A DNA stretch of 64,000 nt from Thermodesulfobacteriota bacterium. Its GTDB lineage: Bacteria; Desulfobacterota; Desulfobacteria; Desulfobacterales; SURF-7. Below are positions 51,269-64,000 of the stretch, one piece after another; within the stretch, counting starts at the first letter, position 1, and each line of letters opens with the position of its first letter. The stretch is taken from assembly GCA_049320885.1 (NCBI GenBank), contig JBMORA010000001.1, positions 1 to 64,000 of the forward strand, given 5' to 3'. Made by a program: the position numbers and the translations under genes. The notes beneath the pieces are model-generated. The model was not told the origin of the DNA. It was given only the letters and a program-made list of their open reading frames with translations, and did no database searches.

Positions 51269-51409
51269 GAGGGATGGTCACAGCTCCTTTTCCGTTCCGG
51301 CCGCCGCTGCCGCGGCAACCGGGCTGGGCGAGACATCTGGATCTCCGTTCGGGCGGCATGCGCCGCCAGAATACCGGAATTAATACGAATTTCCTAATAA
51401 TGCCATGGA

Positions 51410-51438
51410 AGTATATGCAATGGGTATCCGGGTGTCAA
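51410..51438 (-). promoter_or_regulatory. sigma70-type promoter of the hybrid kinase
   Basis: Minus strand TTGACA-N17-TATACT. Confidence 0.75.
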
Positions 51439-51439
51439 G

Positions 51440-51469
51440 ATGATTGCCCATGCCATGATTGCCCATGCC
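51440..51469. repeat. Perfect 15-bp tandem repeat
   Basis: ATGATTGCCCATGCC x2. Confidence 0.9.
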
Positions 51470-51680
51470 CGTTATCATTGTCCGGCATATTCCACCGAGC
51501 CGGATCTGCCCCTGCGGCCATCGGCCTCGGCGGCGGATCAACCCTTTTTCCGCCCACGGACGACGCGGATTTTCCCGGATGAGAAAAAATACCGCAAAAA
51601 AATGAAACTTTTTGCCACCTACCGGGTTTAACTGTCTAAACGGCAACCATGTTTAATTTACCCGAAAAGGAGACTGAAAA

Positions 51681-52241
51681 ATGAAAAGATCGATGATGAT
51701 GGTATTGGCGATAACCCTGCTGATGACCCTGGGCCTTGGCGGCAACTCGTTTGCCGGTAACGGCAATATGCGCTCCGATGGAACTGCCGCCGCTATCCAA
51801 AACGGTAACGCGGACAATCCCCGGGGTGTTCTCAAAGAACAATTCCGCCATTGCGCCCGATGGCATCACCGGCCGGTTCTGAACCGGTTGTTCCACTGCA
51901 TGCAGGACCTGAATTTGTCCGACGAAACCCGACAGGCCGTCCGGGATTTGCTGGCGGCGTATAAAGAATCCGCTGCGGCCCGCAGGGAAGCATACAACCA
52001 GGCGCGGATCGCCTACTGGGAAGCGCTCACCGCCCCGGTGCTGGATGAAGCCGCCCTGGCTGCCGCTGAAGACGCCATGCTGGCTCTCATCAACGAGGGG
52101 ATGAATGCCAAATTCGATCTGGCCTATGCCATCCGGGGTCTGCTGACGGATGAACAGATCGCCCAACTGTCAACCTGTTTCGATTTTTCGGTTGATGACG
52201 ATCAGGACGATGAGCCTGCGGGCGATCTGGAAAACGACTGA
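51681..52241 (+). CDS. Periplasmic Spy/CpxP-family (LTxxQ) protein
   Basis: Signal peptide, LNLSDET and LLTDEQ motifs, acidic tail. Confidence 0.8.
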   Translation: MKRSMMMVLAITLLMTLGLGGNSFAGNGNMRSDGTAAAIQNGNADNPRGVLKEQFRHCARWHHRPVLNRLFHCMQDLNLSDETRQAVRDLLAAYKESAAARREAYNQARIAYWEALTAPVLDEAALAAAEDAMLALINEGMNAKFDLAYAIRGLLTDEQIAQLSTCFDFSVDDDQDDEPAGDLEND

Positions 52242-52288
52242 GTCATCTCTTCCACATCTCCTCCAACCCCAACCAGAGGTAACCGAGT

Positions 52289-52313
52289 AAGGGAGGGCAG
52301 GTCCCTCCCTTTC
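52289..52313 (+). terminator. Terminator-like hairpin
   Basis: AAGGGAGGG-CAGGT-CCCTCCCTT followed by TC. Confidence 0.55.
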
Positions 52314-52474
52314 ATATTTGCGGGAAATGCAGAAATCCCTCGAACTGTACGCCAGCTTATTTTGCTATAACTGGCTTTAAATACTTGACATAAAAAATTT
52401 CATCAAGTATTCACAGTAATTATGATACGCCTTTGCATGACCATACCCCGTCAACCCCTGTTTTTTTTCTTCAA

Positions 52475-52487
52475 TATCAACATATTG
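52475..52487 (+). promoter_or_regulatory. IHF-binding consensus upstream of ihfB
   Basis: TATCAACATATTG = WATCAA-N4-TTR with upstream T tract; TTGACA-N17-TATTCA at 52385-52413. Confidence 0.55.
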
Positions 52488-52521
52488 GCCATAAAATATT
52501 CCATAATAACAGGTAAAAACA

Positions 52522-52797
52522 ATGAACAAGCTTGAATTGATCGAAAAATTTCGCTCCGAGGCGAAAATTTCAAAAGCGGAAGCAGCTACAATTGTAGACC
52601 TCTTCTTCAATTCCATGTCGGATGCCCTGGCAAAGAGCGGCCGCGTGGAAATCCGCGGGCTGTTCAGCTTTTACGTGAAACAATACAAATCCTACATCGG
52701 CCGCAACCCGAAGACCGGTGAAAAGGTACCCATCAAACCCAAGAAGCTGCCATTTTTCAAATGCGGCAAGGAACTGAAAGCGCGAGTGGATTACTGA
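52522..52797 (+). CDS. ihfB: Integration host factor beta subunit / HU family
   Basis: MNKLELI, RVEIRG and GRNPKTGEKV...PFFKCGKELK. Confidence 0.9.
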   Translation: MNKLELIEKFRSEAKISKAEAATIVDLFFNSMSDALAKSGRVEIRGLFSFYVKQYKSYIGRNPKTGEKVPIKPKKLPFFKCGKELKARVDY

Positions 52798-52872
52798 TAC
52801 CGGAAAAATCGTTTTCGGTGACGATCACGCCAGTCGATGCTGGCAATCAACCCTGAATGAAAGGAGCATCCC

Positions 52873-53097
52873 ATGGCCAATCAGATTGAAAAAGGAATCA
52901 AATCGATCAGAAAAGAGATTGACAAGGTGTTGGACCGGCTGGAAAAATTTATGGTAGAGATTTCCAAAATGGGACAATCAAAACCGGAAAAGAAATCGGC
53001 CTCCAAAAAAGCCCCTGCAAAAAAAGCAGCTGCAAGTAAAAAGAAAGCGGCGCCGGCAAAAAAGAAAACCGAGAAAAGCGACACGCTGAAGGATTGA
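52873..53097 (+). CDS. Small basic protein with histone H1-like Lys/Ala/Pro tail
   Basis: RBS AAGGAG; N-terminal coiled coil, then KKSASKKAPAKKAAASKKKAAPAKKK. Confidence 0.75.
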   Translation: MANQIEKGIKSIRKEIDKVLDRLEKFMVEISKMGQSKPEKKSASKKAPAKKAAASKKKAAPAKKKTEKSDTLKD

Positions 53098-53163
53098 TCG
53101 CGGGTAAGCTGGGGAGCAACCGCTCAAGGGATAGCCGGATTTGGGGGGCTTGAAAAAGCCCTG

Positions 53164-53201
53164 GAGGGAAGCGAATGCACAATTCGTTTCCCTCTTTTTT
53201 T
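53164..53201 (+). terminator. Rho-independent terminator
   Basis: 13-bp stem GAGGGAAGCGAAT/ATTCGTTTCCCTC followed by 7 T. Confidence 0.85.
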
Positions 53202-53272
53202 CAAGGCAGACCTGGCAGCGGTGGCGTAAGCATGGAAATATGTAAATTTTTTAAGTCATATTAAAGGATTGC

Positions 53273-53301
53273 TTGACACACTGGCAACCGATACATATAC
53301 T
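53273..53301 (+). promoter_or_regulatory. sigma70-type promoter of the biosynthetic operon
   Basis: TTGACA-N17-TATACT, 52 nt before ATG 53354. Confidence 0.8.
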
Positions 53302-53353
53302 CGGCAGCGACTTGGCACTCCCGACCCTAATTTCTGACTGAATACAATTTTGC

Positions 53354-54754
53354 ATGAATATCTTATTGATTTTTCCAGCGCCGGAACGATTCCCCATCAG
53401 TGTATACCAGTACCGCAACGTATCCATCCCCGCTTTTCTGACCCACATGGCAGCGCTCACTCCCAAGGAACACCAGGTTCGCCTGGTCGATATGATGATG
53501 GGCGACACCGTTCCCTACCACGACCGTTTTGACCTGGTTGGCATTACCGTCCGCACGCCCATGGCGCCGGTCTCCTATGCAATTGCCGACCGTTTCCGAT
53601 CCATGGGAACGAAGGTCGTTCTGGGCGGGGCCCATGCCTCGGCGCTGCCCATGGAGGCCAAAGGCCACGCCGACGCGGTTGTCATCGGCGAAGCGGAACA
53701 AACCTGGGAAATGGTTCTGGAAGATGTCCATACCAACAGCTTGCGCGACTTTTATGTCTGCGGGCCCTTTCCATTGGACACGCTCAGCGGCGATTTCCGC
53801 CACGTGCCCCATCGGCCGGACCTGAAAGATCTGCCGGCACCACGATATGATCGGCTGGATTGCAGTCGCTATATCATGGGAACCTTCTTCACCACCCGCG
53901 GATGTACCTATGGATGCAAATTCTGCAACGTGCAGCCGTTGTTCGGCGCCCGGACAAGGCACCGCCCCGTCGACCAGGTCATTGGCGAACTGTCAAAGGC
54001 CCCCAGACTCCTGCTGTCGGTGGACGACAATATTTTCGGCGCCCCGGGGGATGTCGATTACTATATGGAACTTTACGGCCGAATGAAAAAGCTCGGGAAA
54101 TACTGGGCGGGCCAGGGTTCCCTGGCGGTAACGACCTATCCCCGTGCGGATGGGTTGCTGCAAACAGCAGCGAAAAGCGGTTTATCCCTGCTAACCGCCG
54201 GCATCGAGGCGCTGGACAGCGACGGTCTTGAAGAAAGCGGCGCCTTTCGGAAGCTCGGTCTTTCCGCGCCCGCTAACATCACCACGGACCAGGCCAGGGA
54301 AAGCATCCATAAAATTCAACGTTACGGCATCAACCTGCTGGGCTATTTTATCATCGGTTTCCGTCGACAGACCCCGGCGACCTTCCAGGCGATTCTTGAT
54401 TTCTGCGACCGTTTCGCCATCATACCGGTACCGATTCTCCTGCACCCATTGCCCGGCACGCCCCTGTATGAGGAGTACCGGGCGGAAGGCCTGCTGCACG
54501 CTCCGCATGGCTGGGAAGCCTTCGACGGCGCGCATATGGTGGTCCGCCACCCGGAATTCGATGTCGCGGATACCGAACAAAAATATATCCAGACAGTGAT
54601 GGCCGCCAACAGCAACGGCCGAAGAGTCTCCCGGACATTCCAGCGCTTTATCCGGAATCCCCGGATCGACAGCTTGATCAATTTTCACAAAACCCAGGGG
54701 GTCATGCAGAAGGGGATCCGGGAATATTTAAAGGAGCGGCGATCGTCTCCATGA
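53354..54754 (+). CDS. B12-binding domain radical SAM enzyme
   Basis: AALTP, DLVGIT, VVLGGAHAS, VIGEAE, TRGCTYGCKFC, VDDN and PLPGTPLY. Confidence 0.92.
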   Translation: MNILLIFPAPERFPISVYQYRNVSIPAFLTHMAALTPKEHQVRLVDMMMGDTVPYHDRFDLVGITVRTPMAPVSYAIADRFRSMGTKVVLGGAHASALPMEAKGHADAVVIGEAEQTWEMVLEDVHTNSLRDFYVCGPFPLDTLSGDFRHVPHRPDLKDLPAPRYDRLDCSRYIMGTFFTTRGCTYGCKFCNVQPLFGARTRHRPVDQVIGELSKAPRLLLSVDDNIFGAPGDVDYYMELYGRMKKLGKYWAGQGSLAVTTYPRADGLLQTAAKSGLSLLTAGIEALDSDGLEESGAFRKLGLSAPANITTDQARESIHKIQRYGINLLGYFIIGFRRQTPATFQAILDFCDRFAIIPVPILLHPLPGTPLYEEYRAEGLLHAPHGWEAFDGAHMVVRHPEFDVADTEQKYIQTVMAANSNGRRVSRTFQRFIRNPRIDSLINFHKTQGVMQKGIREYLKERRSSP

Positions 54755-56289
54755 AACCAGCCATATTATTGACCGGTGCCACCGGACTCGTGGGCGCCAG
54801 CCTGTTGCGTGCCCTGATAGAAGAAGATTATCCGGTCATCTGCCTGGCCCGCCCCAGGAACGGCCATTCCCCGGCAATGCGGATACAACATACCCTGGCG
54901 GCGCTGTCCCCTGATCTGACGTCTCCCCGGAAGATCAAAACCCACGTCGAGACCTATTGCGGGGACATCACCCAGCCGCAACTGGGCCTGTCCCTGACGG
55001 ACTACCGCCATCTTGCCCGGACCGTCACCCATGTCTTTCACAGCGCCGCCGCCATCCGTTTTGCGGCGGCCGACACTCACAAGGTTCGCCTGACCAACAT
55101 CGGCGGCACGGACAATCTCCTGGCCTTCTTGCAGGACGCCCCTGCCGTTGAAGGCCTGCATTATATCGGCACAGCCTATATCGCTGGCGACCGGGAAGAT
55201 CGGGTTTACGAAGACGATACGGATAAAGGCCAGACATTCAACAACGCCTACGAGGAAAGCAAATTCGTCGCTGAACTCCGCATCCGGGAATTTCAGCGCC
55301 GGGCGCTTTCGAAAGTGACCATCTACCGGCCGGGCATCATTGTGGGGGATTACCTTACCGGCACCACCATCCGGTTCAATACCATGTATCAGTTTCTCAA
55401 GGTCCTGCACGTCCTGAAATCCTCCTACCGCCCCGACAGCAGCGGGAGAACCCACATGCCCATCCGGGTTCTCGCCGATCCCCGGACCACCAAAAACTTT
55501 GTCCCCATTGATTATGTGGTGAAACTGGTCATGAAAATCTTTTCCGAACCGCGGCTCCATGGCAAAACCTATCATCTGGTCAACCACCAGCCGCCCACCA
55601 TGGCCCTGATCCGGGAAGTCATGCTGGACGTGCTGCAGATCAGCGGCCCCACCTTCGTCCCCCCCAAATCCTTCCAGGAAAATCCGCCGGATGAAATCGA
55701 ACGGGTTTTCATCGATGAAACCAAGATCTACACGCCCTACCTGTTGAAGGAACCCGCATTCGACAACACCCATGTCCGCGACATCGCCCCGGGATCCGAA
55801 TATCTGTGCCCGCCCATGGACCGGGAGGCCCTGCTCCGGCTTTTCGAATTTGCCGTCCACTCCGGCTGGGGTCGCAACATTTGGAAGCGGGTGCTCAAAC
55901 CCGCCGAGAATGCGCAGGGAAGGACCCAACTGATTCGCAGCTATTTCAACGACTTTTTGCCATCTGTCATGGGCCGGTCGATTTTTGCCGACCTCGACAA
56001 CCTGAATGCCTGCATCGGTTTCCTGTTCACCGACAGCCGGGAAAAGTGGACGATTGAAATCAAAAACGGCAAGTTGCAACAAATACGACCACTCCTGCCG
56101 GATCGCAGCCAGGTGAACTATGAACTGGGGGATGACACCTTCGCCCACATCATATCCGGAACGCTGACCCCCCAGGAGGCTTTTTTCACCAATAAATCGA
56201 AAATCAAGGGAGATGCACTGAAAGGTTTGAAGCTTGCAGCCATTTTCGACCGGTTCATCAAGCAATACCCGTATCAAGGCCATGATTGA
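54751..56289 (+). CDS. Extended SDR (thioester / acyl-CoA reductase-like) fused to C-terminal SCP2 lipid-binding domain
   Basis: TGATGLVG, GDIT, HSAA, YEESK and RPGIIVG; C-terminal PQEAFFTNKSKIKGD. Confidence 0.85.
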   Translation: MKPAILLTGATGLVGASLLRALIEEDYPVICLARPRNGHSPAMRIQHTLAALSPDLTSPRKIKTHVETYCGDITQPQLGLSLTDYRHLARTVTHVFHSAAAIRFAAADTHKVRLTNIGGTDNLLAFLQDAPAVEGLHYIGTAYIAGDREDRVYEDDTDKGQTFNNAYEESKFVAELRIREFQRRALSKVTIYRPGIIVGDYLTGTTIRFNTMYQFLKVLHVLKSSYRPDSSGRTHMPIRVLADPRTTKNFVPIDYVVKLVMKIFSEPRLHGKTYHLVNHQPPTMALIREVMLDVLQISGPTFVPPKSFQENPPDEIERVFIDETKIYTPYLLKEPAFDNTHVRDIAPGSEYLCPPMDREALLRLFEFAVHSGWGRNIWKRVLKPAENAQGRTQLIRSYFNDFLPSVMGRSIFADLDNLNACIGFLFTDSREKWTIEIKNGKLQQIRPLLPDRSQVNYELGDDTFAHIISGTLTPQEAFFTNKSKIKGDALKGLKLAAIFDRFIKQYPYQGHD

Positions 56290-56971
56290 AGAATCTGTTT
56301 TTTTCCGCTCGGATCGCTTGAACCTTCACGGCGTTCTGTCATACGCAGAAGATCTCTTCCTCGCGCCGGCGGTCCTGTTGTGCCCGCCCCACCCTCAGCT
56401 GGGCGGCAACATGGACAACAACGTCATCCGCGCGATCCACAATCTCCTGGCGGCGAACGATTTTGTCAGCTTTCGATTTGACTACCGCGGTGTCGGCAGG
56501 AGCGAAGGTGATGCTGAAATGGAAGTGGACAGCCTCAAGGCCTTTTGGGAAGATTCCCACAGTCCCTTGGACCTGCCCCGCCAGCAGGATGCCATGGCCG
56601 CCTTCGATTATTTGCGGCGGATGCCGGGAATCAACCAGCGGGAACTATCCCTCGTGGGGTATTCCTTCGGAGCCCATGCGGCCCTGCAGATCGCCGCCGA
56701 CGCGCCGTGGCTCGCGGCCATGGTCCTGGTCGCCCCAACACTTCATTTCCACGATTTCGACCGGCTTGATTCCCTGACCATTCCCAAACTGATCGTCTGG
56801 AGCGACAATGACTTCTCGTGCCCCCAGGATCATTACACCAAACGTTTCCGGGACTTCGCCGCCCCCAAGGAACACTTGGTTTTCCCGGGGGCGGACCATT
56901 TTTTCATCGGCCATGAAGCGGCCCTGAGCCACCGCGTTCTCCAATTTTTGAAAGGCAGGTTGAATGCATAA
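56282..56971 (+). CDS. Alpha/beta hydrolase
   Basis: PHPQLGGNM, RFDYRGVGRSEG, GYSFG, ND and ADHFF; ATG 56282 overlaps the upstream stop. Confidence 0.88.
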   Translation: MIEESVFFRSDRLNLHGVLSYAEDLFLAPAVLLCPPHPQLGGNMDNNVIRAIHNLLAANDFVSFRFDYRGVGRSEGDAEMEVDSLKAFWEDSHSPLDLPRQQDAMAAFDYLRRMPGINQRELSLVGYSFGAHAALQIAADAPWLAAMVLVAPTLHFHDFDRLDSLTIPKLIVWSDNDFSCPQDHYTKRFRDFAAPKEHLVFPGADHFFIGHEAALSHRVLQFLKGRLNA

Positions 56972-58046
56972 CGTCCCCTGGTTTCATCAATCCGCCGATA
57001 TCTGGTTGCGTCACGTGCTGTCGATCCATTTTGATCCGCAAACCGGAACCCCTTACTGGCTGGAACAGGCCCGAAAAATGGGAGTCGATGTATTGCAGCA
57101 GATCCGGTCCACCGACGACCTCGGCATCCTGGGCCCCATGAACCCAAAGGCCCTCGCCACCCGGCCGGTGGAGGATTTCATTCCCCGCCGCTATCACCTG
57201 GAGAAGGAGTCCTTCACGCTGGGAGATACCGCCGGCACCACCGGCACCCCCAAGGTGACGGCCTATCGCAATGACGAGTTCCATGCCGCCTTTGTGGAAT
57301 ACTTCGGTTTCGTCGCCGAGAAGCTGGGCTTTCCCAAGAGCTTGAACTGGTTGTGGATCGGTCCAGGAGGGCCCCATATCATTGGCAAAGCCGCACGGAT
57401 GGTGGCCAGGAGGATGGGCAGCCTGGATCCGTTCGCCATCGATTTCGACGCCCGCTGGATCAAGAAACTGGTTCCCGGTTCCATGGGCTGGGAGCGCTAT
57501 TTCCAGCACATTGAAGACCAGGCCCTGCACATTCTCAGGACCCAAGACATCGGCGTCCTGTTTTCAACCCCGCCGGTTCTGAAAAGGCTGGCGGATAAAA
57601 TGAACCCCGCGCTACGGCGCCGAATCAAGGGGGTCCACTACGGCGGCATGGCGCTTTCCCCGGAGCTGTATCTGCGCCTGCGGAACGACTGTTTTCCCGA
57701 AGCCGTTCACATTTCCGGATACGGCAACACCCTTTTCGGGGTTTGTCTGGAGGTCGAGTCCAACCCGGACGGGCGCCTTCATTACTTTCCCCCCGGTGTG
57801 CGCCTGCTCATCGACATCATCGGCCCGGACAACCGGAAAGTGGATTATGGCCAACGAGGCCGGGTGGTTTTCAGTCGTCTGGATGAAAGTTTTTTAATTC
57901 TCAACATGCTGGAACGCGACCAGGCCACCCGTATTCCGGCCGGGGCGGCCGCCCGCGCCTTCGGCCTGACCCTGGACGGCTTGGCTGATCCCGGTCCGGA
58001 CCCAACGCCGGACACAGCGAAAAAGATGGCCCTGGGGCTGTATTAA
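56964..58046 (+). CDS. EhpF-like / phenylacetate-CoA-ligase-like adenylating enzyme (truncated ANL fold)
   Basis: HFDPQTGTPYW, P-loop TAGTTGTPK, GPGGPH, GYGNT and VDYGQRGRV...ERD; 360 aa. Confidence 0.72.
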   Translation: MHNVPWFHQSADIWLRHVLSIHFDPQTGTPYWLEQARKMGVDVLQQIRSTDDLGILGPMNPKALATRPVEDFIPRRYHLEKESFTLGDTAGTTGTPKVTAYRNDEFHAAFVEYFGFVAEKLGFPKSLNWLWIGPGGPHIIGKAARMVARRMGSLDPFAIDFDARWIKKLVPGSMGWERYFQHIEDQALHILRTQDIGVLFSTPPVLKRLADKMNPALRRRIKGVHYGGMALSPELYLRLRNDCFPEAVHISGYGNTLFGVCLEVESNPDGRLHYFPPGVRLLIDIIGPDNRKVDYGQRGRVVFSRLDESFLILNMLERDQATRIPAGAAARAFGLTLDGLADPGPDPTPDTAKKMALGLY

Positions 58047-58065
58047 CCGTAGGGAGGAATGCCTC

Positions 58066-60069
58066 ATGAAAGCGTCCATTTCTTCACCGAAATCCATGGA
58101 ACTCCTGGCGCCGGTCGGCCGGTTTAAGGGGCTTGAACCGATCCTGGAAAGCGGTGCCGACGCGGTTTACCTGGCGGGCAAGGATTACAACATGCGCCGC
58201 CACCGTTCGGATTTCAATTTCGATAGAGACCAGATCGCCCAGACGGCCGTGAAAGTTCATGACGCCGGCGCCAAACTGTATGTGGCGGTGAACAGCCTCT
58301 TGAGCGACCAAGAACTGGAAGGTGTCGGCGACTACCTCCGGTTTCTGCAGTCCGTGGGCGCCGACGCCATCATCGTGCAGGACCTGGGCCTCATCCGGCT
58401 GGTGAAGGAAAGGGAAATCCATCTACCCCTTCACGCCAGCACCATGATGAATATCCACAGCGCCGAGGGCGCCATCGCCGCCGCCGGACTTGGTATTGGC
58501 CGCATCATCTGCTCCCGGGACATTACCCTGGCTCAAGTCGAGGAGATGGGCCGGAAGAGCGGTCTGGAGATGGAATATTTCGTCCATGGCGATATGTGCT
58601 TTGTCCAAAGCGGCCAGTGCTATGCCAGCGGCCTGATTTTCGGAAACAGCAGCAATCGGGGCAAATGCATGAAACCCTGCCGATGGCCCTATGAATTGAT
58701 CGATCTGGCCGATGGTTCACGTCTGCCGGCCAGAATGGAAGGCAACTATCTTCTGGCCGTCAAGGACATGTGCCTGCTGCAGCGCATCCCCGAATTGGTG
58801 CAGGCCGGAATCGTTTCTCTCAAAATCGAGGGGCGCATGCGGCCACCGGAATTCATGTCCCAAATCGTCAACATCTACAGAAGGGCCATCGACAGGTACC
58901 ACACCGACCCCTTGGGCTATTCGGACAATTTTGACTTGTTCGAGGAACTCTATCGGGAACGGGTAAGGGAGTTTTCAACCAGCGTCGCCTTCCGTAGACC
59001 CGGTGCCGAATTCATCGGTTCCACCGGAGAACGGGAACCCCTCTTCCTGAGCACCGGGGCTGTATTACCCGAGATCGACCTGCTGGACGATCCGGAAGGA
59101 TTCCCCACGGCCCCAAGGGCACTCCAGAGCCCCCGGCCGGAACTGGCCGTGCATGTGGCCACGCCGCAAGCGGCCGCCCGGGCGCTGGCCGGCGGCGCTG
59201 ACTGGATCTATGTCGGTGGCGAAGTCCCCAGCCGGCATGATCATGGGTGGAACCAAGCCGCATTGGAATGCATTATCCGGGATACCCGGGCAAGCGGCAA
59301 AAAGGTCGGCCTGCTGACCCCCCGGGTCACCGTCGCCCATCAACTGCAGGGACTCGCCCGGTTGCTGGACGGCCGTCTGGCGGAACCACCGGACGCCGTG
59401 CTGGTCCACAATCTGGGCAGTCTGCAACTGCTCAAGGCAACCACCGACATCCCCATCCACGCTGATTTTTCCTTGAATGTCATCAATGTCAAGGCTCTGG
59501 AGCTGCTGCACAGCCTCGGGGCTGCCCGGGCGACCGTTTCCCTCGAAGCCGCCTTTGATACCGTGGCCGCCCTCGCCGCCGCCCCCCCCATGCCCCTTGA
59601 ATGCCTGGTCCATGGCCCCTTGCCCGGCATGTACGCGGAACATTGCCTGATCAGCCTGGCCCTGCGCGGAACCTCGGCCGACGAGCCTTGCCGCGGCACC
59701 TGCCGCCATCTTCGCTGTGGCCTGAAAAACCGGTACGCCGATATCTTCCCCGTGGAAACGGACCAGTATTGCCGCAGCCATATTCTCCTGTCGAAAGATC
59801 TGGCCTGCCTGCGGGTTATCGGCGCATTCTTTCACCCGGGTATAAAAAGCCTCCGCATCGAAGGGCAGTACTATGACCCGTCGCTGGTGGGGTATCTGAC
59901 GGAGCTGTATGCCAGGACCATCCAGACCCCCGACGAACCCATCGGGGAAAAGGCCCTGCAACGCCTTGTGTCGCAAAGTCCCAGGGGATTCAGCCTCGGT
60001 GCCTATCCCAAAGGGATCTTTGCCGAAAGAGCGGAAGACTACAAAACCGTCAAAAAGGATATGAAATGA
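58066..60069 (+). CDS. Peptidase U32 family Fe-S protein with two tandem U32 domains (O2-independent hydroxylase family)
   Basis: ELLAP, GADAVY, HAST, HGDMC-x6-C-x15-C-x3-C and KIEGR; second domain GADWIY, VHGPLP, C-x14-C-x3-C and LRIEG. Confidence 0.88.
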   Translation: MKASISSPKSMELLAPVGRFKGLEPILESGADAVYLAGKDYNMRRHRSDFNFDRDQIAQTAVKVHDAGAKLYVAVNSLLSDQELEGVGDYLRFLQSVGADAIIVQDLGLIRLVKEREIHLPLHASTMMNIHSAEGAIAAAGLGIGRIICSRDITLAQVEEMGRKSGLEMEYFVHGDMCFVQSGQCYASGLIFGNSSNRGKCMKPCRWPYELIDLADGSRLPARMEGNYLLAVKDMCLLQRIPELVQAGIVSLKIEGRMRPPEFMSQIVNIYRRAIDRYHTDPLGYSDNFDLFEELYRERVREFSTSVAFRRPGAEFIGSTGEREPLFLSTGAVLPEIDLLDDPEGFPTAPRALQSPRPELAVHVATPQAAARALAGGADWIYVGGEVPSRHDHGWNQAALECIIRDTRASGKKVGLLTPRVTVAHQLQGLARLLDGRLAEPPDAVLVHNLGSLQLLKATTDIPIHADFSLNVINVKALELLHSLGAARATVSLEAAFDTVAALAAAPPMPLECLVHGPLPGMYAEHCLISLALRGTSADEPCRGTCRHLRCGLKNRYADIFPVETDQYCRSHILLSKDLACLRVIGAFFHPGIKSLRIEGQYYDPSLVGYLTELYARTIQTPDEPIGEKALQRLVSQSPRGFSLGAYPKGIFAERAEDYKTVKKDMK

Positions 60070-61352
60070 AACCCATTGGTCCGGAGGCCATACGCCAGAA
60101 AAAAAAAAGCTATCTGCTCCCCTGTCTGTTTCATTTTTATCAGCATCCACCCCAGATCGTGAAGGGCGAAAGGCAGTATCTGATCGATCATGAAGGGAGA
60201 CCATATCTCGATTTTTATGCCGGCGTCGCGGTGGTCAACGCCGGCCATTGCCACCCGGAGATCACGGAAAAAACCTGCGCCCAGATCAGGACCCTCCAGC
60301 ACACCACCACCATTTATCTCACCCAGCCGATAGTGGATATGGCGGAAAAAGTGGCAGCGATCGCCCCGGCGGGACTGGATAAATGTTTTTTCTGCAACAG
60401 CGGTTCAGAGGCCAATGACGGTGCCCTGATACTGGCCCGTCTGGCGACAGGGCGTCACGGCACCATCAGCCTGACCCATGGTCTCCACGGAAGAACCTAT
60501 CTGACCCTGAGCGTCACGGGGATCCCCATGTGGCGGACCGACAATGCCCCTTACAAGGAGGCCATGCTCATCCCCGGCCCCAACTGCTATCGCTGTCATT
60601 TTCAAATGCGCTATCCGACCTGTGACGTTCATTGTGCCCGCAACCTTGAAAAAGCGATCACGCCGGATACGGCGGCCTTCATCGCGGAACCTGTCGCCGG
60701 CAACGGCGGCATCATCGTTCCGCCGCCCGAATATTTCCCCATCATTCGGGAGATCACCCGTAAAGCAGGCATCCTCTTTATTTGTGATGAAGTTCAAACC
60801 GGCATCAATCGCACCGGGAAGATGTTCGCCATCGAACACTGGGGAGTGACCCCGGATATCCTGACCATGGCCAAAGCCCTTGGCAACGGGGTCCCCGTAG
60901 GCGCTTACGTCACAACGGCAGCCATCGCGGCCGCCCATGTCAAACCCGGCGCGTCGACCCTGGGAGGAAATCCGGTGACAGCGGCGACTGTGATGGCCAC
61001 CCTGGAGGTCCATGAAAAAGAAAGACTCCAAACGCGGGCCCACTCCCTCGGCCTCTATTTCAAGGAGCAATTGAAGGCCTTGCAGGAGAAGTATCCGATC
61101 ATCGGGGATGTCCGCGGCATCGGTCTGATGCTCGGCGCCGAACTGGTGAAAACAGACGGAAGCGCCGACGCGGAAACCTGCGATCGGATCCTGGAATCGA
61201 TGAAGGATGACGGCGTCCTGATCGGCAAGACCGGTATCGGCAGAAACGTGCTGACGTTCCAGCCGCCGTTGATCGTGACAAAAGACAATATCGACGAGGT
61301 GCTGGGCAAACTGGACAGCGCGCTCATGCGCAACCACCCGCATGCTTCCTGA
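60066..61352 (+). CDS. Class III (omega-type) PLP aminotransferase
   Basis: [25 protein letters not shown] and TMAKALGNG (PLP Lys). Confidence 0.93.
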
Positions 61353-61436
61353 CAAGCAGAAGATTCGTCGCCCGCCCGTTTTGGGTTTTCCTGGCGGGCG
61401 GCCTGCTTTCGGCGGCCTGCGATGATCTGACAGCAG

Positions 61437-63650
61437 ATGAGGTTTATCGTGGCGGAAATCTTTCTCCTTTGGATCCTGCGGAATTCTGGCAAAGTCTGGA
61501 TTGTCCTGATGGCGCTTGCCGTGGTGTTCGGCTACAACGCATCCAAAGTGCGCATGGACAACTCCATGGAAGTATGGATCCCCCTTAAAAGCCCGATCAA
61601 AACCCAATATGAACGTTTCCTCCAGGAGTTCGGTTCCGAGGAATACATGCTGGTCGCCTTTCAACTCCCTGGGGGACTGAGCCGGGACCATCTTGTGATG
61701 ACCGGCCGATTGAGCCGCGCGCTGAAAAAGGAATCCGGAATCCGCAGCGTCTGGTCCCTGACGGAAATTTTCGATCGACCAAGCGAATACATCGATCTTT
61801 TCAAGATAATGATCCTGTCGTCGGGTTTTGCAAAGCATCTGCTCATCGCGCCGGATGGCAAGGCCGCCGGCATCATTGTCCTGCTTTCCGAAGGAGGCCT
61901 TCGCGACAGAGGCGGTGTGCTGAAGCGAATCAAGGAAACCGTGGCGGCAACACTGCCCCATGGCCCCGAGGCCTTTATCGCCGGCCCATCCGTCATCAAC
62001 GCCGAACTGGACCATATCTCCCAGCGGAATGCGATGATCTATTACCCGATCCTGTTTGCCGCCTGTCTGTTTATGCTGCTGATGATTTTCAAGTCCTTGA
62101 CCGGCGTCGTTGTGCCTGCGCTGATGGCGGGCTTCGCTCTCATGCTGACGGTGGGCTGGATGGGAATTCTGGAAGCCGAACTGAATGTCATCACCATCGC
62201 TGTGCTGCCACTGGTCATGGTCACATCGCTGGCCTATTCCATTTATTTTTACAACGATTATGAAGGGCATGGGGAGCACCGTCCTCCTGCCGCCGTTGGA
62301 AGCCATGAGTCCGCTGTGATGAAGGCCTATAACAATATCCACCTGCCCTTGTTCCTCAGCGCCCTGACAACCGTGATCGGCTTTTTATCCCTCATGGCCA
62401 GCGATATCGGGCCTGTCAGCGACCTGGGGCTTTTCGTCGCCCTGGGGATCGGGTCGACCTTTCTCTTGGCCATTTCATTTCTGCCCCTGCTCCTGATGCG
62501 ATTTCCCCGGCCGCATCCAAAACCGCGGCCGTCGGAGCCCCTTCATGGGCCGGCCGGTTTTTTCCCACGCACAGGACGTTTCGTCCTCCAATCCAAAAGA
62601 TGGGTCATCGCTATCTTCAGCCTCGGCATGATCCTGGCCGGCATCGGCATGAGCAACCTCAGCATCGAAACCGACGCCTTGATGTTCTTCCCGGATGACT
62701 CGCCCATCGTGGCCGCCTATCATTTCATCGAGAGCCGTTTCACCGCCTTGGCGCCGGTGGAAGTCGTCATCACGGCCCAGGATGCGCCATGGGAAAACCA
62801 CCTGCCGGATTACGACACCCGAATGAAAATAAAAAGCTTCCAGGAAGACATTCTGCAAAATCCGGAAATCGTCACCTCCAAATCCATCGTGGACATTTGG
62901 GAAGATACCATCAGTGCCGAACTCATGGAAACCAGCGCCATCCCGAATCAGCGCCTGCTGCAGAGTCTCGAGACGGCAAGCCGCTATTTCATCAACGACC
63001 GTGGAACAACTACCCGCATTTCCGTCCGCGTCAAGAGCCTGGCTTCCAACCAGTTCCAAACCATCGTCACCTATATCGAAGCAAAAGCCCGGGAGCATTT
63101 CAACGGCTGGCGGGATGTTTATATAACCGGAATCGTTCCTATTATCGTCGACATGCAGAACCAGCTGCTGCAGAGCCTGATGAAAAGTTTCCTGATCGCG
63201 TTCGGCATCATATTCGGGGTCTTCCTCCTCCTGTTGAAATCGATGAAAAAGGCAGCCATCTGCATGTTCGTGAATCTGCTCCCGATCGTCGTCATTTTCG
63301 GATTTATGGGCTGGATGGACATCAAGCTGAGTGTGGCCACCGTGATGATCGGGAGCATCGCCATCGGGATCTGCGTGGATGACACTGTCCATTTCATCAC
63401 GCGCCTGAAACAGGAAAGCTACGGTACCGCCGACCTGCATGGGCCGCTCCTGATAACCCTCGCCGCCACCGGCAAATCGATCGCATCTACATCGCTGGCC
63501 AATCTATCCGGATTCATCGTGCTCTGCTTTTCCGGTTTTGTTCCCATGCAGCAGTTCGGTATGTTGACCGGCATCACCATTGTCATCGCCATGCTGGCGG
63601 ATCTGCTGCTCCTGCCAGCCTTGCTGGCGTTTTTCCGGATCAGACTTTAA
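61437..63650 (+). CDS. MMPL / RND-family lipid exporter
   Basis: Two repeats of TM1-periplasmic loop-5 TM; SALTTVIGFLSL and GICVDDTVH. Confidence 0.92.
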   Translation: MRFIVAEIFLLWILRNSGKVWIVLMALAVVFGYNASKVRMDNSMEVWIPLKSPIKTQYERFLQEFGSEEYMLVAFQLPGGLSRDHLVMTGRLSRALKKESGIRSVWSLTEIFDRPSEYIDLFKIMILSSGFAKHLLIAPDGKAAGIIVLLSEGGLRDRGGVLKRIKETVAATLPHGPEAFIAGPSVINAELDHISQRNAMIYYPILFAACLFMLLMIFKSLTGVVVPALMAGFALMLTVGWMGILEAELNVITIAVLPLVMVTSLAYSIYFYNDYEGHGEHRPPAAVGSHESAVMKAYNNIHLPLFLSALTTVIGFLSLMASDIGPVSDLGLFVALGIGSTFLLAISFLPLLLMRFPRPHPKPRPSEPLHGPAGFFPRTGRFVLQSKRWVIAIFSLGMILAGIGMSNLSIETDALMFFPDDSPIVAAYHFIESRFTALAPVEVVITAQDAPWENHLPDYDTRMKIKSFQEDILQNPEIVTSKSIVDIWEDTISAELMETSAIPNQRLLQSLETASRYFINDRGTTTRISVRVKSLASNQFQTIVTYIEAKAREHFNGWRDVYITGIVPIIVDMQNQLLQSLMKSFLIAFGIIFGVFLLLLKSMKKAAICMFVNLLPIVVIFGFMGWMDIKLSVATVMIGSIAIGICVDDTVHFITRLKQESYGTADLHGPLLITLAATGKSIASTSLANLSGFIVLCFSGFVPMQQFGMLTGITIVIAMLADLLLLPALLAFFRIRL

Positions 63651-64000
63651 CAGCACCCGCAGCTTTCTGGTGATTCCAAGCAGGTACGCATGCTTCCACA
63701 CCGGACGGAATCGAAGCCTCCGGGCCAATTGTTGCAGCAGTACATTAGCGGGCCAATACCAGTCTTCGGCGCTGCTCCAGGTCAGCTCGGGATAACAAAA
63801 CCGGTCGACGTCCGTTACATGCTGGATGCCCATGGCCTTGGACAGATAGCAGACCGGCCGTAAAAGCCCTGCCTCATCGGACAGGAGGCCCTCTTTTCTG
63901 GCAACGGCCTCCAGTTCGGTCCCTGGATAAATTCGCATGCCCAGATTGAACAAAACCTGGTTGGGTTTTTTGATCGTTTTGAGGAAAGCGACGGTTTCCC
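63504..64000 (-). CDS. Radical SAM protein, C-terminal part (runs off window end)
   Basis: Frame open to the window edge: ETVAFLKTIKKPNQVLFNLGMRIYPGTELEAVARKEG resembles the C-terminus of B12/radical SAM proteins; CxxxCxxC not visible. Confidence 0.65.
   Translation of the reverse strand, partial: ETVAFLKTIKKPNQVLFNLGMRIYPGTELEAVARKEGLLSDEAGLLRPVCYLSKAMGIQHVTDVDRFCYPELTWSSAEDWYWPANVLLQQLARRLRFRPVWKHAYLLGITRKLRVLLKSDPEKRQQGWQEQQIRQHGDDNGDAGQHTELLHGNKTGKAEHDESG

Follow-up and report, generated by a model that had tools for sequence, protein, structure and literature searches.

What might seven tightly packed genes – encoding a radical SAM protein (g1), a reductase with a lipid-binding domain (g2), a hydrolase (g3), a short adenylase (g4), a double U32 protein (g5), a PLP enzyme (g6) and a transporter (g7) – make together, and do they belong together at all? 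They lie in what we call the window, the whole analysed stretch of 64,000 nucleotides from a Thermodesulfobacteriota bacterium (contig JBMORA010000001.1), a host that bears sulfite reductase and is presumably largely anaerobic. We give about even weight to the reading that they represent a rare version, probably gained by horizontal transfer, of a module whose enzymes would make an amine from a membrane-bound carboxylic acid with no need for oxygen, and whose transporter would export the product.

Layout of the locus

The seven genes are co-oriented on the forward strand (53354-63650) and, by their ORF coordinates, meet at junctions of -4, -8, -8, +19, -4 and +84 nt from g1 to g7, exactly as an earlier note on this DNA had read them, with four of the junctions overlapping by 4 or 8 nt. 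A sigma-70-type promoter-like site (TTGACA-N17-TATACT; 53273..53301, + strand) is located 52 nt upstream of the g1 start codon, has 11 of 12 consensus matches, and ranks best among 14 sites in 52200-64000 (shuffles, 5.8 +/- 2.2). The terminator said to precede it is found as a hairpin with a T run (53163..53195, + strand; 14 pairs, 6 of them G-C), which appears to close the upstream unit and lies downstream of a small ORF for a Lys/Ala-rich protein of 74 aa (52873-53097). Overlapping junctions, promoter-like site and terminator-like hairpin together support the prediction that g1-g7 form one compact operon-like unit.

A further B12/radical SAM gene, g8 (63504-65084, - strand; 526 aa, with B12-binding and Radical_SAM domains), converges on the operon as previously described, overlapping the final 147 nt of g7 and continuing past the window end at 64000; a divergent MarR gene follows beyond the window (65267-65731). 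Position is the only tie of g8 to the operon, and with the MarR gene it makes up a separate convergent unit that is present in no related locus. Domain searches bear out all of the earlier family assignments, including the EhpF-like one, and find no PP-binding, ketosynthase, condensation or cyclase domain in the nine genes, in agreement with the reported lack of PKS, NRPS, ACP and cyclase.

Conservation of the gene set in other genomes

With the adenylase as marker gene for the module, the reductase, SCP2, MMPL, adenylase, double U32 and PLP enzyme are found clustered together in anammox Planctomycetota. All 11 anammox loci examined (L010 and 10 others) have MMPL, the adenylase and the double U32; the PLP enzyme occurs in each of the 10 that extend that far, and the reductase lies within 10 kb in nine. 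SCP2 is a standalone gene in these loci and elsewhere is fused to the reductase. In one of the genomes, an encoded protein is identical to a protein listed under Ca. Kuenenia sp. Of 132 genomes in the anammox class 59 carry the adenylase, as do 108 of the 401 Planctomycetota sampled, and other Planctomycetota have a U32-less form of the module, often by a pentaheme cytochrome and sometimes by futalosine genes. A g3 homologue adjoins the adenylase in 10/10 non-anammox module loci and in 4/11 anammox loci, and the orders MMPL-adenylase-U32 and adenylase-U32-PLP enzyme recur on metagenome contigs nearer to the window. In contrast, 21 of 21 control loci around a paralogous adenylase have none of the module families nearby, and in a tree that took in one plasmid EhpF/GriC-type homologue the module adenylases group in a clade of their own, distinct from the paralogues and from that homologue, which is named 'arylcarboxylate reductase'. 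The gene set is not a chance neighbourhood, and the conserved co-occurrence on which the candidate cluster had been staked is found in anammox bacteria, in other Planctomycetota and on metagenome contigs. As a conserved unit the pathway is nonetheless weakened by metagenome contig L147 (8.5 kb) and locus L134, both of which carry the adenylase without most other module genes.

A radical SAM gene had also been counted as a member, but neither g1 nor g8 has a counterpart in any of the 21 related module loci, and g1 is therefore an accessory gene of the window variant, outside the conserved core. Literature searches, like the earlier note, found no published description of this gene combination, and the apparently unpublished pathway means that its product merits identification; the cluster is not unique, however, as what the window carries is a rare form, distinguished by its radical SAM genes and by having no cytochrome, of a module widespread in anammox and other Planctomycetota. 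Of 401 genomes sampled in the window's phylum, the window's own is the only one with the adenylase; both same-genus genomes lack it, and horizontal gain of the module by the host is thus likely.

Predicted route from acid to amine

What we observe is how the genes are ordered, which families and catalytic motifs they have, and how far the set is conserved and distributed; every chemical step, the nature of the substrate and the transport direction are inferred. The alpha/beta-fold hydrolase g3 (56282..56971, + strand; 229 aa, with the nucleophile elbow GYSFG; start taken as the ATG at 56282, the longer alternative being a TTG at 56234) may free or load the acid, and g4 (56964..58046, + strand; 360 aa), an EhpF/GriC-type short adenylate-forming enzyme, would convert it to the acyl-AMP. 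The pathway is supported by the full-length match of g4 to EhpF (PDB 3l2k; E 3.5e-31, residues 15-340), with the P-loop TAGTTGTPK kept and the ANL C-terminal subdomain absent. EhpF/EhpG (from the phenazine D-alanylgriseoluteic acid pathway) and GriC/GriD (from grixazone) are two-protein carboxylic acid reductases, and the available part of PMC10179220 describes how GriC forms an acyl-AMP and GriD then reduces this to an aldehyde, the same chemistry as is predicted for g4 and g2. Like EhpF, g4 is a short form that adjoins a reductase in a biosynthetic cluster, and its homologues on Streptomyces plasmids carry the name arylcarboxylate reductase. The differences are that in ehp-type phenazine clusters an aldehyde-dehydrogenase gene comes directly behind the g4 homologue, whereas the partner here is an SDR fused to SCP2 – which weakens the pathway, since the known partners of EhpF and GriC are aldehyde-dehydrogenase-type reductases – that the module adenylases stand in a clade apart from the EhpF/GriC homologue, and that g4 lies in a membrane export module rather than in a phenazine or aminophenol pathway.

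The reduction of acyl-AMP to aldehyde would fall to g2 (54751..56289, + strand), a single-copy gene in the host genome for an SDR of the thioester-reductase/fatty-acyl-reductase type (NAD_binding_4, residues 5-290) fused to an SCP2 lipid-binding domain (residues 414-500), which may hold a hydrophobic substrate as has been proposed for UbiT. A reductase role is supported by the NAD_binding_4 score of 158 bits, the Rossmann motif TGATGLVG, Y167xxxK171, and the MxaA reductase domain as best solved relative. However, the score against TIGR01746 (146) is below the cut-off of 213, and thioester reductases normally require a thioester, although neither a carrier protein nor a CoA-ligase C-terminal subdomain is in view; both points count against the pathway.

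The aldehyde would then yield a primary amine by transamination through g6 (60066..61352, + strand; 428 aa, Aminotran_3), a class-III (omega-type) PLP enzyme that is 57-62% identical to the anammox copies. The PLP lysine K270 and D241 are invariant across 19 module homologues, and the conserved lysine supports a PLP role; but g6 reaches no equivalog model and, among solved structures, comes closest to a phospho-lyase, which leaves room for an activity other than transamination. A thioester reductase followed by a class-III aminotransferase is reportedly used by MxcG/MxcL of myxochelin and by PigE of prodigiosin, with the same passage from reductase aldehyde to amine. In NCBIfam models g2 shows a weak likeness to the reductase region of MxcG and g6 to the aminotransferase region of PigE, both far under the cut-offs, and, unlike those systems, the window has no NRPS, PKS or carrier protein and would activate its acid by a stand-alone short adenylase.

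Hydroxylation is the part predicted for g5 (58066..60069, + strand; 667 aa), in which two U32 stretches are fused, the N half like UbiU/TrhP and the C half like UbiV. Each has a conserved Cys cluster (C178, C185, C201, C205 and C236; C527, C542, C546 and C569; all in 12 of 12 sequences), and this likeness to UbiU and UbiV supports a hydroxylase role, although the scores are far under the equivalog cut-offs (UbiU 171/440, UbiV 77/275, TrhP 228/534), a shortfall that weakens the pathway as those of g2 and g6 do. UbiU and UbiV each bind a 4Fe-4S cluster, and with the SCP2 protein UbiT they serve O2-independent ubiquinone hydroxylation (PMC6747719). The window similarly pairs SCP2 with two different U32 units, in a host presumed largely anaerobic and with a hydrophobic substrate implied, but its U32 units are fused in one protein, its SCP2 is fused to the reductase, g5 is additional to three other U32 genes in the host genome, and no ubiquinone genes lie near the operon, the host having futalosine (menaquinone) genes. 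The hydroxyl would probably be added to an aromatic ring and probably come from prephenate, the oxygen donor in UbiT/UbiU/UbiV-type hydroxylation according to the available text of PMC10990095.

A methyl addition or other radical change may be due to g1 (53354..54754, + strand; 466 aa), a class-B radical SAM protein with B12-binding and Radical_SAM domains and CxxxCxxC at residue 184, which reaches no equivalog model and has only four close relatives (65-68% identity) in a large protein library. The product would be delivered to the envelope by g7 (61437..63650, + strand; 737 aa), an MMPL/HAE3-type RND transporter. The O2-independent route from acid through aldehyde to amine put forward in the earlier note thus fits the GriC/GriD and UbiT/UbiU/UbiV precedents and stands as a prediction.

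Substrate and alternative readings

If this logic holds, we lean tentatively, at somewhat under an even chance, to a lipophilic acid with an aromatic ring, of the kind that serves as a quinone precursor (e.g. a futalosine-pathway naphthoate), as the substrate. An aromatic, redox-linked compound is favoured by relatives of the window, in which MqnA/D-family genes lie within 10 kb in 4/10 non-anammox module loci (0/11 anammox loci, 0/21 controls) and multiheme cytochromes accompany 14/21 module loci compared with 2/21 controls, and by the MqnA/D gene pair of the host. The pentaheme cytochrome is homologous between the anammox and non-anammox groups. An aromatic substrate is also suggested by the U32 substrates named in the available text of PMC10990095, every one of them an aromatic or heteroaromatic ring. 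Futalosine and cytochrome neighbours occur only in relatives, which weakens this reading: the window itself has none, and no pentaheme homologue is found across the whole genome G000.

A fatty acid is a less probable substrate for the same logic. The corresponding route, which we consider rather unlikely overall, would start from an acyl-ACP, acyl-CoA or fatty acyl-AMP, which the reductase would bring to the level of a fatty aldehyde before the PLP enzyme makes a long-chain fatty amine, with radical SAM enzymes methylating the chain, MMPL exporting the aminolipid to the envelope, and U32 hydroxylating a non-aromatic carbon or doing some other job. The g2 domain belongs to PF07993, the fatty-acyl reductase family, and lipids are the cargo of MMPL and SCP2. 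Further points in favour are that the nearest reductase domains to g2 (41-46% identity) have no SCP2 and one of them sits in a FASII-like cluster, L013, with ketosynthases, ACP, FabZ, MMPL and a B12/radical SAM gene; that g8 barely attains the 'lipid biosynthesis' model TIGR04072 (365.4 bits, cut-off 360); and that the adjacent MarR is weakly FabT-like (67 bits, cut-off 200). However, g8 and MarR belong to the separate convergent unit, the EhpF/GriC-type adenylases with named substrates act on aryl acids in the sources as available, the named U32 substrates are rings, and the relatives' futalosine and cytochrome neighbours suggest redox chemistry. Nor are ACP or FAS genes present in the island or in the 21 module loci, with the window's nine proteins as queries. 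FASII-type 'ladderane candidate' clusters are known in Kuenenia and Desulfotalea and, in the available text of Rattray 2009 (PMC2649909), contain a B12/radical SAM gene, a gene resembling acyl-CoA ligases and a new membrane protein that has a lipid-transport domain, while the words aminotransferase, U32 and thioester reductase are absent from that text. L013 is such a cluster, and TIGR04072 is the further likeness; the window differs in having no ketosynthase, ACP or dehydratase, and the anammox module is a separate locus without FAS genes.

More doubtful than the fatty-acyl route is an amide-ligase logic, in which a thioester from elsewhere would pass through the reductase and PLP enzyme to an amine, and the short adenylase would join a second acid to it, giving an N-acylated or N-aroylated lipid. 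This would account for a g4 without the C-terminal subdomain that serves thioester formation, for the absent carrier protein and for the thioester normally required by the g2 family, but the precedents for this adenylase type, as described in the sources available, pass the acyl-AMP to a reductase, and the reductase and adenylase are conserved neighbours across phyla. That the genes are a chance row with no common function is very improbable, in view of the four overlaps, the empty paralogue loci, and the same five or six families together in two Planctomycetota groups and on unrelated metagenome contigs. Least probable, and close to refuted, is the earlier alternative of hopanoid tailoring and export by an HpnJ/HpnP-like radical SAM protein, an HpnO-like aminotransferase and an HpnN-like transporter, as a squalene-hopene cyclase is missing from the genome, which is 98% complete (best 22 bits, cut-off 431), and the weak matches that speak for it stay far under their cut-offs (HpnJ 62 bits against 578, HpnA 50 against 368, HpnN 92 against 752).

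Predicted operon organization and gene products

The island consists of seven genes on the + strand: g1 (53354-54754), encoding a B12/radical SAM protein; g2 (54751-56289), a reductase with an SCP2 domain; g3 (56282-56971), a hydrolase whose start is taken as the ATG at 56282; g4 (56964-58046), an EhpF-type adenylase; g5 (58066-60069), a double U32 protein; g6 (60066-61352), a PLP enzyme; and g7 (61437-63650), an MMPL transporter. With this g3 start the junctions are -4, -8, -8, +19, -4 and +84 nt, and the ORF coordinates thus bear out both the seven co-oriented genes and the six junction values of the earlier note. That note also placed a terminator and then a TTGACA-N17-TATACT promoter ahead of the operon, and both are found on the + strand as predicted signals – a strong hairpin with a T run (53163-53195), followed by a promoter-like site (53273-53301; 11/12 matches) that is the best of 14 in the region (5.8 +/- 2.2 in shuffles). 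The second, convergent radical SAM gene that it saw leaving the window is g8 (63504-65084, - strand, 526 aa), from which a MarR gene identified by ORF and domain search (65267-65731, beyond the window) is divergent. Domain models detected neither a carrier protein nor a ketosynthase, NRPS or cyclase domain in the nine genes examined, in keeping with the earlier statement that no PKS, NRPS, ACP or cyclase is in view. No RNA family was matched in Rfam between 51000 and 64000 at E <= 0.1, and thus no riboswitch was seen there.

Several other features of the layout are worth recording. The 3′ ends of g7 and g8 overlap by 147 nt (63504-63650), and the g8 product extends into a tail of ~55 aa not present in its 469-aa relatives. 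The hairpin at 53163-53195 closes a 74-aa ORF (52873-53097, + strand) with a lysine/alanine-rich, histone-H1-like tail, on the other side of which lies an HU/IHF-type gene (52522-52797); the DNA between 52.0 and 53.3 kb is AT-rich throughout (GC 0.47).

The g1 product has a B12-binding domain (PF02310; 36.9 bits, cut-off 32.1), a radical SAM domain (PF04055; 42.3 bits, cut-off 29.5) and a CxxxCxxC motif (CTYGCKFC at residue 184), and by these domains and this motif is predicted to be a class-B (B12-dependent) radical SAM protein; it reaches none of the equivalog models (best score 73.9 against a cut-off of 251). The g8 product marginally reaches TIGR04072, ‘lipid biosynthesis B12-binding/radical SAM protein’ (365.4, cut-off 360), and neither the contig at 63-83 kb nor the examined part of the window yielded FAS genes. 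The source genome, G000, has ten or more B12/radical SAM paralogues (nine by tblastn with g1, 10 and 14 matches otherwise), and B12-binding radical SAM paralogues are unusually abundant across it and 40 relatives, with up to 23 matches per genome using g8 as the query.

The reductase part of g2 matches NAD_binding_4 (PF07993; 158.5 bits, cut-off 20.1) and scores below the cut-off for TIGR01746 (146.3 against 213.35); its Rossmann motif (TGATGLVG, residues 8-15) and catalytic Y167xxxK171 are invariant in 20 homologues, the SCP2 domain fused to it spans residues 414-500, and the nearest solved structure is the MxaA reductase domain. A source of thioesters for this enzyme is not apparent in the cluster, as neither a PP-binding domain nor a CoA-forming subdomain was found in the nine genes. 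The g3 product is an alpha/beta hydrolase with a GYSFG motif. We predict that g4 encodes a short ANL adenylase of the EhpF/GriC type, from its full-length homology to EhpF (PDB 3l2k/3hgu; E 3.5e-31, query residues 15-340 on chain residues 24-347), its P-loop (TAGTTGTPK, residues 89-97, with G91, G94 and P96 invariant in 22 sequences) and its missing ANL C-terminal subdomain, the AMP-binding match of this 360-aa protein stopping at profile position 374 of 384.

The two U32 units of g5 differ in their nearest relatives, which are TrhP/UbiU for the N half and UbiV for the C half, and all equivalog scores are far below cut-off (UbiU, 171.4 against 440; UbiV, 77.3 against 275; TrhP, 228.1 against 534). 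The N half has five cysteines conserved in 12/12 sequences and the C half has four such residues, and these clusters are putative 4Fe-4S sites reminiscent of the UbiU-UbiV pair. The g6 product is a class-III aminotransferase family member (PF00202; 349 bits, cut-off 30.5) with K270 and D241 invariant in 19 sequences; of the 25 best among 69 NCBIfam matches none attains an equivalog cut-off (highest score 371.7 against 574), and the closest solved structure is that of ethanolamine-phosphate phospho-lyase, with racemases and omega-transaminases ranking next. The g7 product matches MMPL (PF03176; 148.7 bits, cut-off 20.5) and is below the cut-off for the HAE3 model TIGR00921 (201.1 against 351.9).

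A conserved module in anammox and other Planctomycetota

A scan of genome contigs with g2 as the sole query gave no match, and a profile built from an 8-row alignment of reductase::SCP2 relatives identified 80 loci in genome contigs, only two of which (L010 and L075) have the adenylase together with further module genes. g4 is a better marker of the module than reductase::SCP2. Homologues of g4 with 49-56% identity are present in a protein library under the names Ca. Brocadia, Kuenenia, Scalindua, Anammoxibacter and Loosdrechtia, and one was found in 108/401 sampled Planctomycetota and in 59 of the 132 genomes of one class in that phylum; the protein from one locus of that class is identical to a Ca. 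Kuenenia sp. protein. Twenty of the 108 g4-positive loci, at 20 kb each, were searched with the nine proteins of the window, and the loci compared form an anammox-type set of 11 (ten fetched loci plus L010) and a set of ten from other Planctomycetota.

MMPL, adenylase and double U32 genes are each present in 11/11 anammox-type loci, the PLP enzyme (57-62% identical) in all ten that extend far enough, a reductase within 10 kb in nine of 11, and the hydrolase in four. The usual order is reductase, a separate SCP2 gene, a few small genes, MMPL, adenylase, double U32 and PLP enzyme. At the other loci, where the adenylases are 38-50% identical, the hydrolase is found in 10/10, reductase::SCP2 and the PLP enzyme each in 8/10, MMPL in 6/10, and U32 in none of the ten. 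Twenty-one control loci with adenylases 30-34% identical lack every other module gene, indicating that these paralogues are a different subfamily. Two metagenome contigs are nearer to the window, one (L144) with MMPL-adenylase-U32 at 52%, 63% and 58% identity, and the other (L146) with adenylase-U32-PLP enzyme. There are two exceptions – L147, an 8.5-kb contig with the adenylase and no other module genes, and L134, with reductase and hydrolase alone beside the adenylase. Conserved co-occurrence, which the earlier note had proposed as a check, is therefore observed in anammox bacteria, other Planctomycetota and metagenome contigs. Apparent adenylase-MMPL fusions were not borne out, the long open frames being stop-free stretches of GC-rich genomes. 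Locus L010 (CAXMPV010000079.1) comes from a MAG labelled Thermodesulfobacteriota; the public label is probably wrong, because the adenylase branches as sister of a Ca. Scalindua japonica protein and the genome is assigned to the class that contains the anammox genomes.

The radical SAM genes are not part of this common set, and homologues of g1 and g8 are present in 0/11 anammox-type loci. Only four close relatives of g1, at 65-68% identity, were found in the protein library, and one of these, like relatives of g2 and g4, comes from contigs of 25,423 bases with equal sources, which suggests that g1 belongs to the window's sub-clade of the module.

Multiheme cytochrome ORFs are present at 14/21 module loci, compared with 2/21 control loci. 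A pentaheme cytochrome of ~325-350 aa has homologues in both the anammox and the other Planctomycetota loci, with 34-41% identity between the two groups (E 1e-55 to 1e-64). This c-type protein, probably a lipoprotein, is encoded beside the module in L127-L133, L135-L140 and L075, and its gene often has a neighbour coding for a cytochrome b or for a cytochrome with 10 to 22 hemes; cytochrome b genes are downstream of the module in L125 and L075. Genes of the MqnA/MqnD family are within 10 kb at 4/10 non-anammox loci, compared with 0/11 anammox-type and 0/21 control loci, and one locus (L141) has an unbroken same-strand row of genes for the PLP enzyme, a PNP_UDP_1 protein and an MqnA/D-like protein. 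None of these cytochrome or futalosine neighbours is present in the window; no homologue of the pentaheme cytochrome was found in G000, and its MqnA/D pair is on a contig other than the island's.

The literature collection searched, on ladderane, anammox/Kuenenia, futalosine and U32 topics, yielded no published description of this gene set, which agrees with the earlier view that no described cluster of this combination is known. We conclude that the window carries a rare variant of an undescribed and widespread anaerobic module; the variant includes radical SAM genes, is devoid of the cytochrome and has probably been acquired by transfer.

Proposed chemistry and substrate

A class-III PLP enzyme beside a reductase leads to an amine in the myxochelin and prodigiosin pathways. 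For the preceding steps there is a precedent in GriC, which makes an acyl-AMP that is reduced to the aldehyde by GriD (PMC10179220), and an ehp-type plasmid locus has an EhpF homologue followed by an aldehyde-dehydrogenase gene. The adenylases of EhpF/EhpG and GriC/GriD are like g4, but their partners are of the ALDH type and here it is a thioester-reductase-type SDR; no ALDH domain was found in the island, and the SDR is the candidate partner. Given the GriC/GriD precedent and the conserved SDR neighbour, we read g4 and g2 as a new acid-to-aldehyde pairing, in which g4 would form an acyl-AMP, g2 would reduce it to the aldehyde, and the SCP2 domain of g2 may hold the hydrophobic substrate. The g6 enzyme could then turn the aldehyde into an amine, and g7 would export the product.

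UbiU and UbiV have two 4Fe-4S sites bound by cysteines (PMC6747719), and the combination of SCP2 with two U32 units is common to UbiT/U/V and the island, with SCP2 here fused to the reductase part of g2. The oxygen donor in the O2-independent hydroxylation of the UbiT/U/V pathway is prephenate, which is proposed to be common to U32 proteins, a family of twelve subfamilies that are mostly uncharacterised (PMC10990095). On the UbiT/U/V pattern, g5 together with SCP2 may perform an O2-independent hydroxylation.

We prefer an aromatic, quinone-precursor-type acid as the candidate substrate, by analogy, because the named adenylase and U32 substrates are rings and because in relatives the module has futalosine genes and cytochromes as neighbours. 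A serious rival is a fatty-acyl substrate, since the nearest reductase domains to g2 sit in a FASII-like cluster (L013) and g8 belongs to a lipid-type radical SAM family. In the L013 cluster (CAZUMW010000027.1), three ketosynthases, FabG, ACP, a PPTase and FabZ-type dehydratases are joined to MMPL, a hydrolase, a TPR-containing B12/radical SAM protein and a thioester reductase with 41% identity to g2. This cluster is similar to the candidate ladderane clusters of a 2009 comparative-genomics study (PMC2649909), which are of the FAS type and include radical SAM genes together with genes for a membrane protein and a ligase-like protein; the words aminotransferase, U32 and thioester reductase are absent from that paper. 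Hopanoid tailoring, the alternative offered in the earlier note and examined here as an HpnJ/HpnO/HpnN set, is rejected, as HpnJ and HpnN scores are far below cut-off (61.9 against 577.6, and 91.8 against 751.85) and the best match to squalene-hopene cyclase in G000 is 22.2 against 431.1. The main reading proposed there, a new O2-independent route from acid to aldehyde to amine, is partly supported: the gene set is borne out as a conserved unit, and the chemistry is throughout what we infer.

In a more novel reading, a futalosine-type naphthoate would be the starting point from which the conserved module makes a hitherto undescribed redox lipid or shuttle, quinone-like and bearing an amine, used by anammox and other Planctomycetota with the dedicated pentaheme cytochrome; the window would contain a cytochrome-free offshoot in a sulfite-reductase-bearing Thermodesulfobacteriota genome, in which a B12/radical SAM enzyme adds a further carbon modification, giving a fully O2-independent route to a new membrane cofactor. 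We regard this as speculative and rather unlikely. Were the proposed chemistry true, it would provide a new substrate class for U32 O2-independent hydroxylases, a new carboxylic acid reductase in which an adenylase of the EhpF/GriC type is paired with an SDR, and an undescribed lipophilic amine of anammox bacteria, whose membrane chemistry has long attracted interest; a new redox lipid could then be put to the test, given the links to cytochromes and futalosine genes seen in relatives. The seven compact genes of the window's island could be expressed together as a single piece and would add radical SAM chemistry to the module.

Host genome and origin of the island

The source genome is 98% complete, contains DsrA/DsrB and has one COX1-family gene. 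It is the only one of 401 sampled genomes in the host phylum in which g4 was found, and 0/5 close relatives, both same-genus genomes among them, gave a g4 match; no g2 orthologue was found in 40 relatives, and g1 and g8 are represented in related genomes only by paralogues 35-41% identical. Synteny with a same-genus genome ends on the left at ~48.9 kb and on the right, at 69.29 kb, at a tRNA-Arg(TCT) gene (69292-69368 of the contig, 6292-6368 of L001, the same contig from 63 kb on; - strand), and the two breaks define a variable region of ~20 kb that includes the operon. No att-like repeat of this tRNA-Arg of at least 12 nt was found in 20-69.2 kb, and no integrase domain in the ORFs scanned on either side, a scan that took in only a minor part of the window before 48.9 kb. 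The GC content of the island (0.572) is close to that of the genome (0.558), and no skew in composition was found. With no att repeat, integrase or GC skew seen, it is the distribution that argues for transfer, and the island was likely gained horizontally.

In a quick maximum-likelihood tree of adenylases, g4 groups with six metagenome sequences, and the resulting clade of seven is well supported. This clade and the anammox clade are sisters with moderate support (SH-aLRT 87), and the paralogues and the plasmid EhpF-type sequence fall elsewhere in the tree.

Within the variable region, a 277-aa ORF (66568-67401 of the contig, 3568-4401 of L001) aligns with no more than the central part of the CocE/NonD hydrolase model (278-376 of 550), and is possibly a gene remnant. 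No contigs bridging the island edges were found in two sediment metagenomes of one other study, X2 and X3. Both contain short, near-identical contigs over 50000-64000, with 0-1 differences per piece, and the X2 pieces span the whole of this stretch (30/30 bins), indicating that a strain identical or very close to this one, with the island, lives elsewhere.
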